NCBI GenBank assembly: GCA_021813025.1 | Contig: JAKAME010000001.1 | Location: forward strand, 2,201 to 66,200 | Direction of reading: 5' to 3' | From: Candidatus Micrarchaeota archaeon | Lineage (GTDB): Archaea > Micrarchaeota > Micrarchaeia > Anstonellales > Anstonellaceae | Length of the DNA stretch: 64,000 nt | Shown here: positions 2,184 through 50,535 of the stretch, one piece after another | Layout: each line of letters begins with the position of its first letter | Numbering within the stretch: the stretch's first letter is position 1 | The notes under the pieces: generated by a model | Database searches by the model: none | The model's input: the letters and a program-made list of their open reading frames with translations, nothing else | What the model was told of the DNA's origin: nothing | Translations under genes and position numbers: made by a program

Positions 2184-2984
2184 ATGCGCGTAATCTACAT
2201 GGCCAAGAACAAGGCCTCATGCATCGGGGGCCTGCGCTACCTGCTGGAGAAGGGCGTGGAGGTGGCGGCAGTGGTTGCCCCGCCCAAGGACGACCCTTCG
2301 ATGGGCGGGCGAAGCCTGGCCGAATTCGCCAAAAGCAGGGGGCTCAGGCTGGCGACTGACCAGGAGCTCTACGATGCGCTGGAAGGCAAGCCCTCGCCGG
2401 TGCCGAAATCGGCTCTGGAAAATGTTGATTTTGTCATTTCTTTCCTGTTCTGGAAGCGCATCCGCGCGCCCCTCATCCGCCTGCCGAAATTTGGGTGCGT
2501 CAATTTCCATCCCGCCCCCCTGCCAGATTTCCGCGGCGTGGGAGGATACAACGTGGCCATATGCGAAGGATTCCCCCAATGGGGCGCTTCAGTCCATTTT
2601 GTGGACGAGGCTCTCGATACCGGCGACATCATCCGCGTAGAGCGCTTCCCCATAGACCAGGAGGCAGAAACCGCCCTGTCTCTGGACCGCAAGACGCAGA
2701 ATGTGCTGCTTGGCATGTTCAGGGATTTCGTTGACCATGCCGTGCGCGGGGAGAAGTTCCCGCGCATGAAGCAGGGCCCGGGCAGGTATGTGAAAAAAGA
2801 GGAATTCGAGGCTTTGCGCAAAATCGGGGCGCATGAGGACGCCGCTTCCATAGGCCGCAAAATACGCGCGTTCTGGTATCCGCCCTACCCCGGCGCCACG
2901 ATTGAGGTGGACGGGAAGGCCTACACGCTTGTTGACGAGAAGATGATGAAAAAAATCGGCGAGATGGTGCACAAGGAAGATTGA
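2184..2984 (+). CDS. Formyltransferase (Fmt/ArnA-N-like), putative sugar N-formyltransferase
   Basis: Formyl-transferase fold with an N-terminal Rossmann-like region and a catalytic segment containing FHPAPLPDFRGVGGYNVAICEG. Context is amino-sugar genes. Start taken at MRVIYMAK. Confidence 0.75.
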   Translation: MRVIYMAKNKASCIGGLRYLLEKGVEVAAVVAPPKDDPSMGGRSLAEFAKSRGLRLATDQELYDALEGKPSPVPKSALENVDFVISFLFWKRIRAPLIRLPKFGCVNFHPAPLPDFRGVGGYNVAICEGFPQWGASVHFVDEALDTGDIIRVERFPIDQEAETALSLDRKTQNVLLGMFRDFVDHAVRGEKFPRMKQGPGRYVKKEEFEALRKIGAHEDAASIGRKIRAFWYPPYPGATIEVDGKAYTLVDEKMMKKIGEMVHKED

Positions 2985-3013
2985 ACAATGACTGGACTAC
3001 GTATATAATTTTT

Positions 3014-4189
3014 TTATTCGTCCATCATCTGCTTCTGGAACAGCTTGGCGTCCAGCGGAATATCGCAAAGCACTTTCACTATGCGCTCTGACGCATGGCC
3101 GTCCCCATAGGGCGAGGCGCAGCGGGCTGTGAGGGATTTGCGGAAAGACGGCGACAGGGCTTTCTTGACAGCTGATTCTATGGCCTTCCTCTCATGCCCC
3201 ACGCTGAGCACGTTGCCCCCCTGCTCCCGGCCTGCCTGCCGGGGGCCGATGTTCACCGCAGGCGTGCAGAACGAGGGGGCCTCCAAAATGGCGCTTGAAG
3301 TGTTGCCAACCATGGCCCCGCAATGCTTCATTAAGGAAAGGTAATCGGCATATGGCACGCTTGGGCAAATCCTCACGAGCGGCAGGCGCTTCCTTCTCTG
3401 CTCGATAACCTCAATCATCTGCCTGCCGCCTGCATCTGAGTTGGGGTAAATCAGCACCGCGGGCAGGCGGAGGCTTTCAAGCACGCTGAGGGTGAGGCCC
3501 ATCTGGGAGGCGGCCGCATCAGGGCTTGTGGAGAGAGGATGCTGCAGCACAAGCAGGAAAGGCTTTTTCGGCTCAAGACCGTATTTGCGGCAGATTGAGT
3601 CTTTAGAATCAAGCTTTTGCGAGAGTATGAAATCCACGGCAGGCGAGCCTGCGCGGAAGATGCGCCACTTGGCCTCGCCCATCCTCAGCAGGCGGGCCTC
3701 GCTCTTCTTTGAAACAGGGAAATGGATTTGTGCCAGCTTGGTAATCGCCCCGCGAGCATACTCGTCCAGCCCGCCGGTGGCATTGTCGCCCCCGTGCAAA
3801 TGGGCGAGGGGGATGGACATGTAGGTGGCGGTGATGGCGGCAGTGAGCATCTCGATGCGGTCGCCCAGCACAAGCACTATGTCCGGTTTGAGGCGCCTGA
3901 ATTCGGCAGCCATTCCCTCCACGCCGCGCGAGATGGAGAGGGTGCGCTCATAGGGCGTTTCTTCCTCTTCGTTCATGTTCTGGACCTCGGCATCCGCATC
4001 GAATCCGTCCGCGCGTATCTGGGCTATGGTGTGGCCAAATCTCTTGAGCAGATGCATGCCGCATACCAGAAGCTGCAATTTCAGCCTAGGCTCTTTCCGG
4101 ATTGCACGAAGCAGGGCTGTGAGGATGCCGTAGTCGGCCCGCGTCCCGGTAATCACGCAGATTTTCCTTTGCATAGTCTGCACCTGCAT
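3014..4189 (-). CDS. UDP-N-acetylglucosamine 2-epimerase (hydrolysing), NeuC/LegG-like
   Basis: KICVITGTRADYGIL N-terminus and GDRIEML...HLHGGD motifs of the NeuC family. Confidence 0.8.
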   Translation of the reverse strand: MQVQTMQRKICVITGTRADYGILTALLRAIRKEPRLKLQLLVCGMHLLKRFGHTIAQIRADGFDADAEVQNMNEEEETPYERTLSISRGVEGMAAEFRRLKPDIVLVLGDRIEMLTAAITATYMSIPLAHLHGGDNATGGLDEYARGAITKLAQIHFPVSKKSEARLLRMGEAKWRIFRAGSPAVDFILSQKLDSKDSICRKYGLEPKKPFLLVLQHPLSTSPDAAASQMGLTLSVLESLRLPAVLIYPNSDAGGRQMIEVIEQRRKRLPLVRICPSVPYADYLSLMKHCGAMVGNTSSAILEAPSFCTPAVNIGPRQAGREQGGNVLSVGHERKAIESAVKKALSPSFRKSLTARCASPYGDGHASERIVKVLCDIPLDAKLFQKQMMDE

Positions 4190-5368: not shown

Positions 5369-6100
5369 CTATTTCTTCCTGCGCTCGCGGGCCCAAAACT
5401 CGGCCCACTTAAAATCCATTTCGTCGTCAATCTCGATGCTGAACTCGCCCCCCACCACAACGTAGCGGGTCTTGTCCGTGATAAAGCGCTTGAGTTGCTC
5501 GTATGCCGCAGTCTCGATGAGGTAGAACGGGCCGCCGAAGTAGGCCTTGGGCAAATCCTGATGGCGGGCGTAATACTTGTCAGGATAGAGGGCGCGCAGA
5601 AGGCCTGTGCCGTCGTCCACTAGGGTCCAGAACGGCGGGTCCTTGGCCTCGAACACCCCGAACACGCTGTCGCAGCGGGGGTCGGTGCGCAGAATCCCGA
5701 TTGCCTTGGCCACGTCCTCCCGCCGCCTGAACGGGGTGGTGGGCATGAGCAGGGCGAAGGCGAGGGGGTATTTGCCATCCTGCCTGAGCAGGCCCAGCCA
5801 GTGTTCCACCACTTCTTTCATTAGCGAGGTGTCCTTGGCAAATTCGGCAGGCCGCTCGATGGCGCGCGCGCCAGCCTTTTTCGCAAGCTCCAGAATCTCC
5901 GCATCGTCGCTGCTCACATACACCCCGCTGAACAGCCCGCTCTTTATGGCGAAATCGATTGTGTGCAGAATCAGCGGCTTGCCGTCAAGCTCGCGCAGGT
6001 TCTTGCGCGGGATTGTCTTGCTGCCCCCGCGCGCGGGGATGAGGCAGGGCATCTTCAGGCTCTCGAAACCTGGCTTGAATGCGACGGCGCTCTTTTTCAT
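5369..6100 (-). CDS. CMP-nonulosonic acid synthetase (acylneuraminate cytidylyltransferase, NeuA/LegF family)
   Basis: IPARGGSKTIPRKN motif. Start ambiguous between 6052 and 6133. Confidence 0.8.
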   Translation of the reverse strand: MKKSAVAFKPGFESLKMPCLIPARGGSKTIPRKNLRELDGKPLILHTIDFAIKSGLFSGVYVSSDDAEILELAKKAGARAIERPAEFAKDTSLMKEVVEHWLGLLRQDGKYPLAFALLMPTTPFRRREDVAKAIGILRTDPRCDSVFGVFEAKDPPFWTLVDDGTGLLRALYPDKYYARHQDLPKAYFGGPFYLIETAAYEQLKRFITDKTRYVVVGGEFSIEIDDEMDFKWAEFWARERRKK

Positions 6101-6111
6101 ACATATCACCT

Positions 6112-7551
6112 TCATAACAATCTGCTGAACCACTGCAGCATGCGCATGCCCACCTCGCCGCTTTTTTCAGGGTGGAACTGGGTGCCGAAAACATTGCCTT
6201 TGCGTATGACAGAGCAGAATTCCTGGCCCCCGTGCACCGAGCTGGCCAGCACCGAGCCCCCGTCCTCGGGCGCCGCGTAGAATGAGTGCACGAAATAGGC
6301 TTCCGAGCCGTCGGGCACGCTCTCAAGCGGAGTTCCATCCCATTGCGCCCCCTTCGGCTTTGAAATCTGGTTCCAGCCGATTTGGGGCACGCGGTAGCCC
6401 GGCTCCCTGACCTCGGGCACAGGCTTGAACGGCAGCACGCGGCCCGGTATTATGCCAAGCCCCCCATGGCGGCCGAATTCGAGACTTTCGGAGAGAAGCA
6501 GCTGCATGCCGAGGCAGATGCCGAAAAACGGCCGGCCGCTCTTCACATAGCCGCGGATGGGGGCGATGAGCCCGCGCTTTTCCAGCTCGCTCATGCCGAA
6601 CCCGAACGCCCCGTCGCCGGGAAGCACGAGCAGCTGGGCCTGCTCTATCTCGGCCGCGCTCGTCACAAGCTTGACAGGATTGCCAAGGTTGGAGAAGGCG
6701 GTGCGCACGCTCTTGAGGTTGCCCGCGCCGTAGTCGATGATGGAGACCTCTTTTGGATTCGGGGAGGGGTTGGCCTGCACGCGGGCAAGCATTGCCTTCC
6801 TTGTCGCGATGCCGGCGCGCGCCAGCTCCTCCTTCACTCCCCCTATGGTGGCGCGGTTGTAGTGCAGTATGGAGGCAAAGCAGGCGCCGTCGCATCCGGT
6901 TTTGCGCAAGCAGTCGGCCACGTCGGCCCCGTCCCGCGCCCCGCCGCAGGCGAGGACAGGGACTGAAACCGAGGATGCGATGCGGCCCAGAAGCTCGTGG
7001 TCATAGCCGGACATCGTCCCTTCCCTGTCCACCGATGTTACCAGAAGCTCGCCGGCGCCGAAGCCCGCCAGCTTTTTCGCCCATTCCAGCGCGTCAAGCC
7101 CCGTGCGCTCGCGGCCGTTGTCAACGTAGCATTCCCATTTCCCTTCATTGAATTTCGCCTCTATCGAGCCGACTATGCACTGCGAGCCGAAGATTTCTGC
7201 AGCCTTGGTAATAAGTTCCGGGTTTCTGGTGGCTGCGGTGTTGATGGCCACCTTGTCCGCCCCCGCGCGCAGGAGCGTGCGCACGTCCTCCACGCTGCGT
7301 ATGCCCCCGCCAACGGTGACAGGTATGTAGATGCCGTTGGACGCCATGTTCTCCACTATTTCGGTGAGGTTGTTGCGCTCATAGAGGCTGGCCACCGTGT
7401 CTATGTAGAGGATTTCGTCAGCTCCCTGCTCGTAATAGCGCTTGGCCAGAACGGCCGGGCTGCCTATGACGCGCAGGCCCTCGAGCTGGATGCCCTTGAC
7501 GACGTTGGGGCCCTTGATGTCCAGGCGGGGTATGATTCGCACCCGTTTCAT
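6112..7551 (-). CDS. Fused imidazole-glycerol-phosphate-synthase-like protein (HisF cyclase domain N-terminal + HisH glutaminase domain C-terminal), glycan-modifying amidotransferase paralogue
   Basis: N-terminal half [10 protein letters not shown]...VTVGGGIR is HisF-like. C-terminal half [11 protein letters not shown]...[11 protein letters not shown]...FVHSF...QFHPEKS is a HisH-like class-I glutamine amidotransferase. Lies between NeuA and the aminotransferase. Confidence 0.8.
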
Positions 7552-24017: not shown

Positions 24018-24138
24018 AAGGGGGGGAGGGTCAGGAGGACAATCGACGGCCCTTGTTGGCCGTCGGTGCACCGGCGCGCTCGGGCGCGCCGGTTGACCAG
24101 GAACTGGGGAGGGGGGCTTGAGGCCCCCCTCCGCGGTT
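24018..24138 (+). repeat. Copy B of the same element, immediately 3' of the intron-containing tRNA
   Basis: gggggggagggtcaggagga ... ctggggaggggggcttgaggcccccctcc gcggtttggg. Confidence 0.55.
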
Positions 24139-24252
24139 TGGGCCCGAAGGGATTTGAACTCTTGACCACCTGCTCTCCTCGAGAGCTCATCCGACAATCC
24201 GGACGAATCCACATATAAGACAGGCGCTCTAACCGGGCTGAGCTACGGGCCC
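24139..24252 (-). tRNA. Intron-containing tRNA (about 39-nt intron after position 37); positional anticodon UAU, so candidate tRNA-Ile(UAU)
   Basis: Reverse complement gives GGGCCCG-TA-GCTC-AGCCCGGTTA-GAGC-G-CCTGT-CTTATA[intron]A-GCAGG-TGGTC-AAGAG-TTCAAAT-CCCTT-CGGGCCC-A. U33 and purine 37 are in place. One A-C mismatch in the T stem. Confidence 0.65.
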
Positions 24253-24349
24253 GATAAGATTAGGGAAAACGGCGTTTATAATCACTTGGCAAGATTCCCG
24301 TTCTTGTCCACTGAAGCGCTTTCTCTTTTCACAGGAAAGAAAATGACCC

Positions 24350-24388
24350 AAGACAGGCACTATGAACCGGGCTGAGCTACGGATCCGG
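24350..24388 (-). other. Degenerate duplicate of the 5' half of the adjacent tRNA (non-functional fragment)
   Basis: ccggatccgtagctcagcccggttcatagtgcctgtctt versus the tRNA 5' half gggcccgtagctcagcccggttagagcgcctgtctt. The D-stem is disrupted. Confidence 0.6.
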
Positions 24389-24415
24389 AATGAATGGCGA
24401 ATGGAACTTTGTGAA

Positions 24416-25681
24416 CTACCACGTCCTGATGGGTGCGGCTTCCGGCGTTCCATCCGAAGGATGCTCATCCGGCCGGTTCAGGGCCAGTCCACAGGTGGCC
24501 CCGCTTCCGTCCATATAGGGCAGAAGCCTCTTTCCAATGTTGATGGCACCATTAAGGTCGGCGTTGTATTGGCCGCAATTTGAGCAGACAAAACAGCCCT
24601 GGCTCTTTCGCTGGCCTTCCAGACCGCAGGCATGGCAGGTGCGGCTGGTCATTCTCTCGTCCACAGCCACAACTGGAATGCCCAATAGCCCTGCCTTGTA
24701 TTCAATCATCGACCGCAGCTTATAGAAAGGCATTGAGGAAACAATGCGGTTGAACCGCTTTCCCCTGCCTCTGGCCCCCTTTCGGATGCCACGCAAATTG
24801 CCCAAGGCAATGCAGGAATTGGAAGCCACGGCAGCATCCACAAGGTGGCGGCTGACGCAGTGGAGAATGTCGTTTACGCGAATTCTCTCCCGCGCTCCAA
24901 TCCTTTTCACTACCTTTAGCAACTTGCGCTCCTGCAGCCTCTTTCGCAGCCAGGCATGGTGCCTTCGTATTCCCCTGATTTCCCGGCCCAAGAACATGGG
25001 CTTCATCACTTGGCCTTCCCACAGCAGCACCGCAGTCGCGGGGGTCCGCTCGCCCATGTCAATGGCCAGAACAGAGGAAAAGTGAGTTTTGAGTTTGGTA
25101 GGGATTTCATAGACCAGATTGGCTATGAATTTCCCCTTTCTTTTGAACAATTTGCTTTCGCACAATTTGGCGTCGACAGGAATAGGCCGATGAGGCTTGA
25201 AGGGGACTTTGATGCCGCCCCGCTGGCCTGCTACTGGGATTCTCAAGAAGTAGAAACTCTTGCTTTTTTGCACATTAATAAGGTCATTTCTCAGACTGAG
25301 AGGATATTGGACGCCTTTCTTGATTTTCTTGTAGAAACGCAGGGCCTGCTGTTTGTGGGCAGAATAGAGAGGGGCATTCCCTCCTTGCAGAACGATTTGG
25401 AGGTTGGCATATTCCCTATCCAGAAGCTGCTGCTTGCGCTGGGTGAGCTTGATGAGGCCGCAGCGGATGGTCAGGCGCATGAGAATTTGCCGGTTTGAAA
25501 CGCCTTTAAGATTTGGAGAGGGTGACTTTCCGCTCGTCGGAGAAGGGAGAGTCTTCATCAGGCGTCTGAAGGCGCCGATTTTCACGAGAGCGAGAGCATA
25601 TAAGATTGAACTGCCCATACCTCTTTCATGTTCCACCGCCTCTTCTATCCCCGCCAGACCTGCATGCTCGCGGCCACGCAC
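24416..25681 (-). CDS. tnpB: TnpB (IS200/IS605-family OrfB, RNA-guided RuvC-like nuclease)
   Basis: RuvC-I (LAIDMGE), a zinc finger (CHACG...CSNCG) and a RuvC-III-like block (DLNGAINIGKR). No tnpA nearby. True start may be internal. Confidence 0.85.
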   Translation of the reverse strand: MRGREHAGLAGIEEAVEHERGMGSSILYALALVKIGAFRRLMKTLPSPTSGKSPSPNLKGVSNRQILMRLTIRCGLIKLTQRKQQLLDREYANLQIVLQGGNAPLYSAHKQQALRFYKKIKKGVQYPLSLRNDLINVQKSKSFYFLRIPVAGQRGGIKVPFKPHRPIPVDAKLCESKLFKRKGKFIANLVYEIPTKLKTHFSSVLAIDMGERTPATAVLLWEGQVMKPMFLGREIRGIRRHHAWLRKRLQERKLLKVVKRIGARERIRVNDILHCVSRHLVDAAVASNSCIALGNLRGIRKGARGRGKRFNRIVSSMPFYKLRSMIEYKAGLLGIPVVAVDERMTSRTCHACGLEGQRKSQGCFVCSNCGQYNADLNGAINIGKRLLPYMDGSGATCGLALNRPDEHPSDGTPEAAPIRTW

Positions 25682-26281
25682 GAGGACAAGTCCAATGTAA
25701 CCGTTGTTGACTGGGCCACGCCTGTGTCTGTCAAGCCTCCCATGCTGGCAGTTGCCCTCAACCTCAAGAGCTACAGCCTCGAGCTGCTGCTGGCCTCGCG
25801 CTGCTTCACCCTCTCGGTGCTGCCCGAATCAATGGCAGACAAGGCGGCTGCGGTCGGCTCGGCCACGGGCAGGGTGATTGACAAGGTGGACGAATACCAG
25901 CTCAAGCTCAAGCCGGCCAAATCGGTGAAGGCGCCCCGCCTTGACGGCGCGATGGCATGGGTGGAATGCGAGCTTCAGGGCGTGTTCAGCTCCGGCGACC
26001 ACGCGCTTGTTGTGGCCGAGGTGATGGAGACTCATTTCCCTGACGAGGAGGCTGGCAAGACGCCGATGCTGTTCAACTGGGGCAACAAGAATTACTTTGG
26101 GATTAAGAGGGAGTGGAAGGAGGAGAAAGGGAAGGAGAGGGAGGAGAAGAACGGCAGGGAGAAAGACGAGAAAAAAGAAGATACTCGTCTCGTGGTTGTG
26201 AAAAAGGAAGAAAAGAAAGAGGAAAACAAAAAAGAAAAAGAGAGTTCGACCACGGAGAAAAAAGAGGAAAAGAAATCTTGA
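25664..26281 (+). CDS. Flavin-reductase-like (FMN-binding split-barrel) protein with long K/E-rich C-terminal tail
   Basis: Flavin reductase-like domain (VTVVDWATP...SGDHALVVAEV) followed by about 70 aa of KEEK low-complexity sequence. Confidence 0.65.
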   Translation: MLAATHEDKSNVTVVDWATPVSVKPPMLAVALNLKSYSLELLLASRCFTLSVLPESMADKAAAVGSATGRVIDKVDEYQLKLKPAKSVKAPRLDGAMAWVECELQGVFSSGDHALVVAEVMETHFPDEEAGKTPMLFNWGNKNYFGIKREWKEEKGKEREEKNGREKDEKKEDTRLVVVKKEEKKEENKKEKESSTTEKKEEKKS

Positions 26282-49280: not shown

Positions 49281-50529
49281 TACATAATGTTGTGAATGTA
49301 ACATATCGGCACCAACCAGAACGACCGGAATCCTACCCTCTACAAACCCACATAGGCTAGCTAGGCTTTATCTTAGTTATGAGAGCTTACCGCTTTCGCC
49401 TCTACCCCTCCAAATGGCAGGAGAAGGAGTTGCTTCATCATCTCTTTATAGAGAAAAACCTCTGGAACATGCTTCTGGAGAAAACCAAGAAAAAATATAA
49501 CGAAGAGGGGAAATTCTACTCCAAATCCGAGATTCAACTTCTGGTTAAAGACAGCGGCCTGTACTCCCAATCGGCCCAAGCCATCGCTCATCGCCTCCAC
49601 CATGCCCTCCAGGCAAAAGTTCGGGCCAAGAACAGAGGTCAGAAGTGGGGGTTCCCAAGATTCAAATCCATCGAGCGCATGAAAAGTATCTACTACCCCC
49701 AATCTGGTTTTTCTCTTGGCCAAAAGCTCAAGGTCTCACCATTCGGAGAAATTTCTATCGTTCGGCATCGGATAATCAAAGGCCGTATCAAAACCCTCAC
49801 ACTCAAGAAAGAAGCTTCTGGTAAGTGGCATGCCATTTTCATGGTTGAGGAAGAATCCGTTCCTCAAAAACCCAACAACGGTCCAACTGTTGGATTGGAT
49901 TTGGGCCTCAACCATCTGGCTACTCTTTCTAACGGGAATTTCATTGAAAATCCACGCATTTTCAGCCAGTTTGAGAACGAGCTTGCACGGACCCAACGCC
50001 ATCTGTCCAGAAAGCGCAGAGGAAGCCACAATCGAGAGGAATCTAAGAAGAAAGTGGCTCGAGTCTATGAATCTTTAGCCAACGCCAGAAAAGACTATCT
50101 TCACAAGGCAGCCAACGCCCTTCTTTCTCAATACTCTAAAGTTGCTATGGAGGATTTGAGGATACAGAAGATGGCCAGAGAGGGTCATGGTAAAAACATT
50201 CATGATGCCTCATGGGCCCTGTTCACAAATATGCTCTGCTACAAGGCTGAGAGTGCCGGTTCAGAGATTGTGTTTGTGGACCCAAGGAATACGTCAAAAG
50301 AGTGCAGTCGTTGCCATTCAATTGCCAGCAAAAGCCTGTGGGAGCGAACTCATCAATGCTCCTCTTGCGGTCTGGTGCTTGACCGGGATGTCAATGCTGC
50401 CATCAACATACTCCAACGAGCTACGGCCGGGATGGCCGGAAGTAACGCCTGTGGAGATGGAATAGAGATTCCGTCTTTGAAGCAGGAAGCCGCGCCCAGT
50501 ATGGCGTGGTGATTCACTACATAATGTTG
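49281..50529 (+). mobile_element. IS200/IS605-family (IS1341-type) tnpB-only element, lower GC, flanked by 12-bp direct repeat tacataatgttg
   Basis: Repeat copies at 49281-49292 and 50518-50529. A single TnpB gene inside. Inserted between the lysW promoter and argF. Confidence 0.65.
49379..50512 (+). CDS. tnpB: TnpB (IS605 OrfB family)
   Basis: N-terminus MRAYRFRLYPS. C-terminal zinc finger CSRCHS...CSSCG and DRDVNAAINILQRA (RuvC-III). Confidence 0.85.
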   Translation: MRAYRFRLYPSKWQEKELLHHLFIEKNLWNMLLEKTKKKYNEEGKFYSKSEIQLLVKDSGLYSQSAQAIAHRLHHALQAKVRAKNRGQKWGFPRFKSIERMKSIYYPQSGFSLGQKLKVSPFGEISIVRHRIIKGRIKTLTLKKEASGKWHAIFMVEEESVPQKPNNGPTVGLDLGLNHLATLSNGNFIENPRIFSQFENELARTQRHLSRKRRGSHNREESKKKVARVYESLANARKDYLHKAANALLSQYSKVAMEDLRIQKMAREGHGKNIHDASWALFTNMLCYKAESAGSEIVFVDPRNTSKECSRCHSIASKSLWERTHQCSSCGLVLDRDVNAAINILQRATAGMAGSNACGDGIEIPSLKQEAAPSMAW

Positions 50530-50535
50530 CGATAG

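Follow-up and report, generated by a model that had tools for sequence, protein, structure and literature searches.

The locus described here lies within a stretch of 64,000 nucleotides of archaeal DNA, referred to as the window (64 kb), and brings together a protein-coding gene, a TnpB-encoding element, a tRNA gene and a partial copy of that tRNA. A flavin reductase-like gene on the plus strand (25628..26281; Pfam Flavin_Reduct, E = 1.4e-30) is oriented divergently from the tRNA and forms the conserved left flank of the locus. The remaining features follow one another on the minus strand, namely a TTATA motif, the element with its tnpB gene, a short leader, the degenerate partial tRNA copy (B), a 'spacer' and the intact tRNA gene (A). 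A tRNA-like sequence so close to the 3′ end of a tnpB gene tempts one to link the guide RNA with the tRNA; the evidence set out below argues that their adjacency is a coincidence of the landing site.

The tnpB coding sequence occupies 24416..25480 on the minus strand and comprises 354 codons plus a stop codon (TAG, 24416-24418), which leaves 164 nt to the tRNA 5′ end at 24252, as the initial annotation had stated. The open reading frame given there is likewise present but overlong: the GTG at 25681 is merely the start of the mechanically called ORF, whereas translation truly begins at the ATG at 25480. The resulting 354-aa product matches database protein P0001 exactly and is about as long as its homologues. 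TnpB carries a Cas12f1-like TNB domain of the zinc-ribbon type (Pfam PF07282, E = 1e-20) and retains all three RuvC D/E/D motifs (aiDmG, IEYKA and NADlNgA), which align with those of solved TnpB and Cas12f chains (8hr5, 9nzp). A protein search returned 443 homologues, mostly archaeal TnpB/InsQ proteins, and the clade, uncharacterised so far, spans DPANN archaea, Bathyarchaeia, Methanomethylicia and Asgard-labelled metagenome bins.

The boundaries of the element emerge from a comparison of TnpB homologues at 57-88% identity together with their genomic contexts, which provided ten copies, the window included, in unrelated surroundings. At the right end, similarity among these divergent copies stops at ...GGTAGTTCAC, beyond which the sequences are unrelated; in most copies, including that of the window, GGTAGTTCAC ends 5 nt past the stop codon. 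The corresponding TTCAC of the window runs from 24415 down to 24411, which sets the right end at 24411. On the left side, copies in unrelated contexts remain homologous as far as TTATA(N); in eight of the nine readable copies the left end is preceded by TTATA and a further, variable base. The element thus delimited covers 24411..25598 on the minus strand, about 1188 bp, with an uncertainty of 1 nt at the left boundary. Its left end (25481..25598, minus strand) is conserved among copies and contains a CGTGAARAC motif, a hairpin and a GATGAA motif (approximately 25551-25585); the hairpin is kept, with changes in the stem, in the window and in six other copies (L003, L004, L005, L006, L017 and L022).

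No tnpA-like sequence was detected in the 64-kb window by tblastn, a weak test that relied on an IS608 TnpA sequence as query. Elements of this family are mobilised by a Y1 (HUH) TnpA that acts on subterminal hairpins, and any mobility of the present element would hence require a transposase supplied from elsewhere. The earlier description of an IS200/IS605-type TnpB element that lacks tnpA holds within the reach of that search. Judged by the defining features that sequence can reveal, this is a typical TnpB-only (IS1341-type) member of the IS200/IS605 family, and as such the element represents ordinary biology of a known type.

The last 125 nt of the element align well across the ten copies and form four helices, with compensatory changes in 19 of 28 base pairs; the omega-RNA scaffold so defined (24411..24535, minus strand, a minimum extent) coincides with the final 120 nt of tnpB and is almost wholly contained within the ORF, only 5 nt lying past the stop codon. 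The initial annotation had correctly sought the source of the guide in the DNA flanking the right end, but had placed the scaffold 3′ of tnpB rather than inside its coding sequence. It had also proposed a covariance search for the scaffold as a check on a tRNA-associated guide. A covariance model built from the nine other copies, with the window sequence excluded, gives a full-length match in the window at 24535-24411 (115.6 bits, E = 3e-33) but none anywhere in 24253-24410. The right end is accordingly upstream of 24390 and bears no relation to the tRNA-like stretch, and the suggested tRNA-associated guide or target relationship is not borne out. Rfam contains no family that matches the omega-RNA region, even at E <= 1. 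Two side observations concern the model and the window copy: a weak match is also found at 50413-50517, where another, distant TnpB gene has its 3′ end, and the terminal omega-RNA hairpin of the window copy has two mismatched pairs.

Experiments on the archaeal SisTnpB7, which shares the TTCAC end, have shown that the guide is the sequence immediately following UUCAC (PMC11043419). Since the copies compared here end at TTCAC, which in the window is reached at 24411, we infer that the guide is read from 24410 down to approximately 24391, AAAGTTCCATTCGCCATTCA, which is the leader of B. This sequence has no second target in the 64-kb window. B itself begins 24 nt beyond the right end and hence outside both the scaffold and a guide of 16-20 nt.

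A built-in relationship, in which B would be part of the right end or omega-RNA of the element and serve as a tRNA-derived scaffold or guide, draws on the fact that B is located a mere 24 nt from the right end and on the tnpB strand, so that any read-through omega-RNA transcript would include it. We nevertheless regard this reading as extremely improbable: the ten copies cease to be homologous after TTCAC and have unrelated flanks, the covariance model matches the 24535-24411 segment only, and there is no tRNA within the 0.16-3 kb of flanking sequence available on each side of the nine other copies. Nor does the DNA from the right end to the tRNA give a structural signal; the 163 nt of 24253-24415 are less stable than shuffled sequence (z = +1.68). 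Finally, B and its leader occur at the orthologous site in two relatives, L015 and L016, that are free of the element and are described below.

The intact tRNA gene A is a functional tRNA-Ile(UAU) gene at 24139..24252 on the minus strand, identified by an Rfam tRNA match and by its orthologues. It consists of exon 1 (24214-24252), a 40-nt intron at the canonical position 37/38 (24174-24213) and exon 2 (24139-24173), scores 54.8 bits against the Rfam tRNA gathering threshold of 29, and has an anticodon loop containing CUUAUA that specifies the anticodon UAU (Ile). Orthologues with the same intron are present in L007, L008, L015, L016, L027 and L028, and the helix of the intron shows compensatory changes among them. 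ARAGORN missed this intron-containing gene, for which the Rfam covariance model was needed, and the orthologue in L008 has a second intron in the T-loop.

The 'spacer' between A and B (24253..24349, minus strand) is, on its homology to L027 and L016, the native upstream region of the tRNA and its promoter rather than foreign DNA. It is homologous to the single-copy region upstream of the L027 tRNA-Ile (z = 8.0) and to the spacer of L016 (p ~0.001), and the latter two are homologous to each other (z = 17). The spacer includes the TATA box of A, ATTATAAA, at 24275-24282, with 24 nt between the TTATA core and the +1 position of the tRNA.

B, at 24350..24386 on the minus strand, is a degenerate partial copy of tRNA positions 1-34 and, according to self-alignment and alignment with orthologues, a pseudogene fragment. 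It is 37 nt long (GGTTCATAGTGCCTGTCTTGGG), and its homology to the tRNA ends at U34; the partial copy reported previously is thus real, although it extends over 24350-24386 and positions 1-34 rather than over 24350-24388 and positions 1-36. Within the window, a direct repeat pairs 24217-24267 with 24350-24401, and the 33-nt core of B is 91% identical to A with one indel (self-blastn E = 1.5e-5 in the window). Aligned to the tRNA of the window itself, B has 32 identities in 36 positions and needs one gap; against the L015 and L016 orthologues the count is 33 of 37 and no gap is needed, and B shares with both of them an extra C in the D-loop. Relative to the orthologues it has four substitutions, including G3A and C4U in the acceptor stem and two in the D stem. 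The D stem, previously called destroyed, is only weakened by them, with one wobble pair and one broken pair. Beyond B, weak repeat homology continues for ~15-24 nt into the leader (24387..24410, minus strand), the original leader of B, which now forms the DNA flanking the right end and the predicted guide template. Its sequence TTCCATTCGCC is conserved in relatives, both in the leader of the uninterrupted L015 tRNA-Ile promoter and in that of the partial copy of L016.

DPANN archaea are known for fragmented tRNA genes, and B could in principle be a functional gene for the 5′ half of a split or alternative tRNA of the kind seen in Nanoarchaeota, with a product that is joined to a 3′ half made elsewhere. 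B once had its own promoter at the correct spacing of 24 nt, it stops close to the anticodon, a T-rich tract comes next, and its loop can be read as CUUGGGU, a legal loop for a UGG anticodon. We give this reading next to no chance. The D stem and the acceptor strand are degraded compared with every orthologue, and the acceptor strand would mispair with the 3′ strand of A; there is no compatible 3′ half in the 64-kb window, where no partner with CGGATCC is found; the promoter has been removed by the element; and in L016 the equivalent copy is down to 11-16 nt. B likewise has no match to the Rfam tRNA family at E <= 1. On its sequence, B does not behave as a working half-tRNA.

The state of the site in the absence of the element can be read from L015 and L016, two JGI metagenome contigs retrieved by pattern matching of both tRNA copies. 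These empty-site relatives, which come from species other than that of the window, are at ~75-85% protein identity; the protein collection searched contained no relative of the flavin reductase above 75% identity, and an empty site from the same species as the window was not found. In L015 the flavin reductase gene and the tRNA-Ile gene diverge from a single TTATAA, the order being ATG, 23 nt, TTATAA, ATTCCATTCGCCAATTTATTTAC, the intact intron-containing tRNA-Ile and pyrB. The palindromic TTATAA is thereby equidistant, at 23 nt, from the flavin reductase ATG and tRNA +1, and the uninterrupted site CTTATAAATTCCATTCGCC... runs straight into the intact tRNA-Ile. L016 has the same promoter and leader (...CTTATAAATTCCATTCGCC...), followed by GGGCCCGTAGC, a spacer of ~115-120 nt, a second promoter and the full tRNA, with no insertion sequence; the tRNA stub at the first promoter amounts to 11-16 nt. 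A comparison with relatives, which had been suggested as a further check on a link between element and tRNA, thus yields the site without the element in both contigs and, in L016, a stub of the same type as B complete with its promoter.

When the flanks of the element in the window, ..CAGTTCAATCTTATA on the left and AAAGTTCCATTCGCC... on the right, are rejoined, the uninterrupted sequence of L015 and L016 is obtained, and the empty-site junction of the window reads CAATCTTATAAAAGTTCCATTCGCC. Joining the flanks also keeps the 24 nt that separate TTATA from +1 of the tRNA or tRNA-like sequence. Taken together, the restored site and the conserved spacing imply that insertion took place without target duplication. 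Sequence orthology identifies the promoter and leader of B as the pre-existing tRNA-Ile promoter, in line with the earlier proposal that the flank belongs to a tRNA promoter region. B and the spacer are older than the element, because the same promoter and stub are found in the element-free L016 and the spacer is native in L027; on these sequence comparisons the tRNA-like piece predates the insertion and is not derived from it.

tRNA genes are classic integration sites in archaea, and direct repeats of tRNA sequence call to mind the attL/attR-type repeats of an integrative element. B and the 5′ part of the tRNA could be the two repeats left when a virus or plasmid recombined with the 5′ half of tRNA-Ile, nearly all of that invader having been deleted since. 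The locus is indeed variable: an additional AAA-ATPase-like gene is found in L007 directly past the tRNA 3′ end, and the window and L016 agree closely in the left limit of the spacer but not in the junction between B and the spacer (tRNA position 34 in the window, 11 or 25 in L016). However, the 97 nt between the repeats correspond to a native, single-copy upstream region in L027, as the z values given above (8 and 17) indicate; no integrase ORF lies nearby; and neither a pattern search for the tRNA fragment nor a query with the TnpB protein found anything in viral contigs. This origin is very unlikely in our estimation, and B, on the available sequences, does not qualify as an att scar.

A third way of involving mobile elements in the origin of B assumes an earlier insertion of the same family into the anticodon loop of the tRNA, which would have created B and left the spacer as a decayed left end. 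The sequence CTTATA, which contains the TTATA motif found next to the element, does occur at 24214-24219 on the tRNA strand, at the position of the intron, and visual comparison shows GTGAAAA...GCGCTTCAG...AAGAAC to be common to the spacer and the left end. Against this, the homology of B stops at position 34 and not after 37, and the spacer is native upstream DNA. When the spacer was compared with the element left end by local alignment against dinucleotide shuffles, p was ~0.14 for the window and 0.98 for L016. As the likeness is not significant and the spacer is native, an older anticodon-loop insertion was dropped as the origin of B; its probability is minute.

An ordinary TnpB-only element that landed in the TATA box of an older, duplicated 5′ relic of tRNA-Ile, with B not being part of the guide RNA, is therefore the reading that we consider highly probable. 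The relic has a history of its own. In keeping with part of the initial reading, the flavin reductase-tRNA-Ile locus has been rearranged repeatedly in related genomes. Flavin reductase orthologues flank the tRNA-Ile in L007, L015, L016, L027 and L028. A gene of ~200 aa is present between the two in L007, L027 and L028, and absent from the window, L015 and L016. By PyrB distance the window is nearest to L028 (85%), a relative with the 200-aa gene and without B, while L016 groups with L015. B and the spacer are shared with L016, however, and this mismatch suggests that the duplication may have arisen twice or been moved by recombination. If the 5′ part of the tRNA was duplicated independently in the window and L016, a mechanism specific to intron-rich tRNA genes may be at work. 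The direct homology that a tandem duplication would predict between the DNA upstream of B and the spacer is weak (p = 0.02-0.18).

The older layer of this history would consist of a local duplication of ~134 bp in a Micrarchaeota-like ancestor, comprising upstream region, promoter, leader and tRNA positions 1-34, by tandem duplication or templated insertion. Loss of the ~200-aa gene alongside this event would have placed the duplicated promoter beside the flavin reductase gene. The upstream copy B would then have been kept only as a promoter-bearing stub and have decayed, a process that appears to be further along in L016; the state of L015 could have come about by recombination between two tRNA copies. 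In the younger layer, the element inserted immediately 3′ of TTATA, without target duplication, leaving the TATA box with the flavin reductase gene and cutting B off from its promoter. The loss of the TATA box of B was presumably harmless because the intact tRNA A has its own promoter (ATTATAAA), and the splitting of a bidirectional promoter would have been tolerated because its tRNA side had already been duplicated.

The motif at which this insertion took place is TTATA at 25599..25603 on the minus strand (CTTATA, 25599-25604). Its sequence and its conservation next to the left end make it the candidate transposon-adjacent motif (TAM) of the element and, at the same time, the probable core of an archaeal TATA box, which has stayed with the flavin reductase gene. 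In the window, 24 nt separate the motif from the flavin reductase ATG, and on the strand of that gene TATAA starts 29 nt upstream of the ATG. TTATA(A) would thus have been a bidirectional TATA element of B and the flavin reductase gene, the latter probably leaderless. The same geometry is seen in the three closest copies (window, L003 and L005), in each of which a divergent gene has its start codon 24-25 nt downstream of the TAM, a spacing that marks the TAM as the TATA box of that gene.

These positions raise the idea that this TnpB subfamily uses the TATA-box core TTATA as its TAM and thereby homes to promoters, a speculation that we think improbable as a general rule. Were such homing systematic, the element would insert in an orientation tolerated by the host and leave the TATA box with the divergent gene, and its guide would be copied from a transcription-start region, so that TnpB-omega-RNA complexes would be aimed at promoter-proximal DNA. 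Promoter-binding TnpB derivatives are known as RNA-guided transcription factors, and homing of this kind would offer a natural starting point for their emergence.

Once the element is in place, the omega-RNA would be derived from the tnpB transcript, with the scaffold ending in UUCAC at 24411 and read-through copying the leader of B as a guide of 16-20 nt. By analogy with characterised systems, the TnpB-omega-RNA complex would then cut the empty site restored by excision (TTATA followed by AAAGTTCCATTCGCC...), which would favour re-copying or retention of the element. Beyond this mechanism, the boundaries of the element, its TAM candidate TTATA and a scaffold supported by covariation could help genome-editing screens as well as annotation. 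The locus also documents a compact bidirectional promoter, in which one palindromic TTATAA would serve a tRNA and a leaderless gene.

How does this locus compare with known systems? Fragments or partial duplications of tRNA genes beside intact tRNAs are in most accounts interpreted as scars that integrative elements have left in archaeal and bacterial genomes. The present case resembles them in having a direct partial tRNA repeat near an intact gene and a redundant copy that is decaying; it differs in that the repeat comprises the 5′ part with the promoter instead of the usual 3′ part, in the native DNA between the repeats and in the lack of an integrase. With the split and multi-intron tRNAs of DPANN archaea and Thermoproteota it has in common a lineage with introns at position 37/38 and a fragment that ends near the anticodon, whereas B has neither a partner 3′ half nor a complementary joining sequence, and its stems are degraded.

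The element itself is best compared with SisTnpB7, its closest characterised relative (PMC11043419), and with ISDra2 TnpB, which provides the general model. Shared features are the RuvC triad and the zinc-ribbon TNB domain, a scaffold that extends over the tnpB 3′ end, a TTCAC right end with the guide straight after it, a short A/T-rich TAM on the left, insertion without target duplication and a subterminal hairpin at the left end. Unlike those systems, the one described here belongs to a Micrarchaeota-like DPANN archaeon, has no tnpA detected within 64 kb and is known from sequence alone. Its scaffold is almost entirely embedded in the ORF, with 5 nt past the stop codon, and its TAM is probably TTATA, as opposed to TTTAA in SisTnpB7 and TTGAT in ISDra2.

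Near the 5′ end of the orthologous tRNA-Ile gene in L015, a related contig that lacks the TnpB-only element, a single palindromic TTATAA lies (on the reverse complement) 23 nt from the start codon of the flavin reductase gene and 23 nt from the tRNA +1 position; the corresponding stretch of the window is 25599-25630. The arrangement has the look of a bidirectional archaeal promoter in minimal form, common to a leaderless mRNA and a tRNA.

The interval between the tRNA and pyrB is variable. Three GC-rich hairpins, AACTGGGGAGGGGGGC/GCCCCCCTCCGCGGTT among them, occupy window positions 24061-24138 between the tRNA 3′ end and pyrB and are partially conserved in the related contig L016. Possible roles are those of terminators or of a structured leader. 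In L007 (JAKAJC010000007.1), a gene encoding a 436-aa AAA-ATPase-like protein (2373-3683, minus strand) is inserted immediately past the tRNA-Ile 3′ end, and this gene is missing from the window, L015, L027 and L028.

The second tnpB of the window (49379-50512, plus strand; right end TTCAC at 50513-50517) belongs to an element that follows an ornithine/aspartate carbamoyltransferase-like gene, at a distance of 23 nt from its stop codon. A 15-nt direct repeat, TACATAATGTTG(T/C)GA, is present at both sides: its left copy (49281-49295) closely follows CTTATAATAAA, and its right copy (50518-50532) abuts the right end. Since IS200/IS605 elements are not expected to duplicate their target, this repeat is unexplained.

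Two further contigs carry TnpB homologues of the main-locus clade. L006 encodes two different TnpB proteins (3001-4110 and 5691-6914), and the flank past the right end of the second repeats the left-end sequence of the first type, TTTATAAACGTTTTTGTGCG, which suggests that the elements are adjacent or nested. In L017, a serine recombinase gene (Resolvase/HTH_7; 1667-2195) lies ~270 nt downstream of the TnpB gene, and the pair may represent an IS607-like association.

The tRNA-Ile itself carries a UAU anticodon in the window (24139-24252) and in its orthologues in L007, L015, L016, L027 and L028, with compensatory changes between lineages in the intron helix. A further tRNA-Ile(UAU) orthologue, in a Micrarchaeota bin (L008, CAIXYX010000087.1, 1-216), combines the 37/38 intron with a second, T-loop intron of ~100 nt that includes a perfect hairpin, CTTTTCTTTCTCT/AGAGAAAGAAAAG; this two-intron gene received no call by Rfam. 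AUA is decoded by a tRNA-Ile with a UAU anticodon in the Micrarchaeota-like genomes of the window, L007, L015, L016, L027 and L028. The usual AUA-decoding tRNA-Ile of archaea is of the CAU (agmatidine) type, and the UAU type has been noted earlier for Nanoarchaeum and Korarchaeum.
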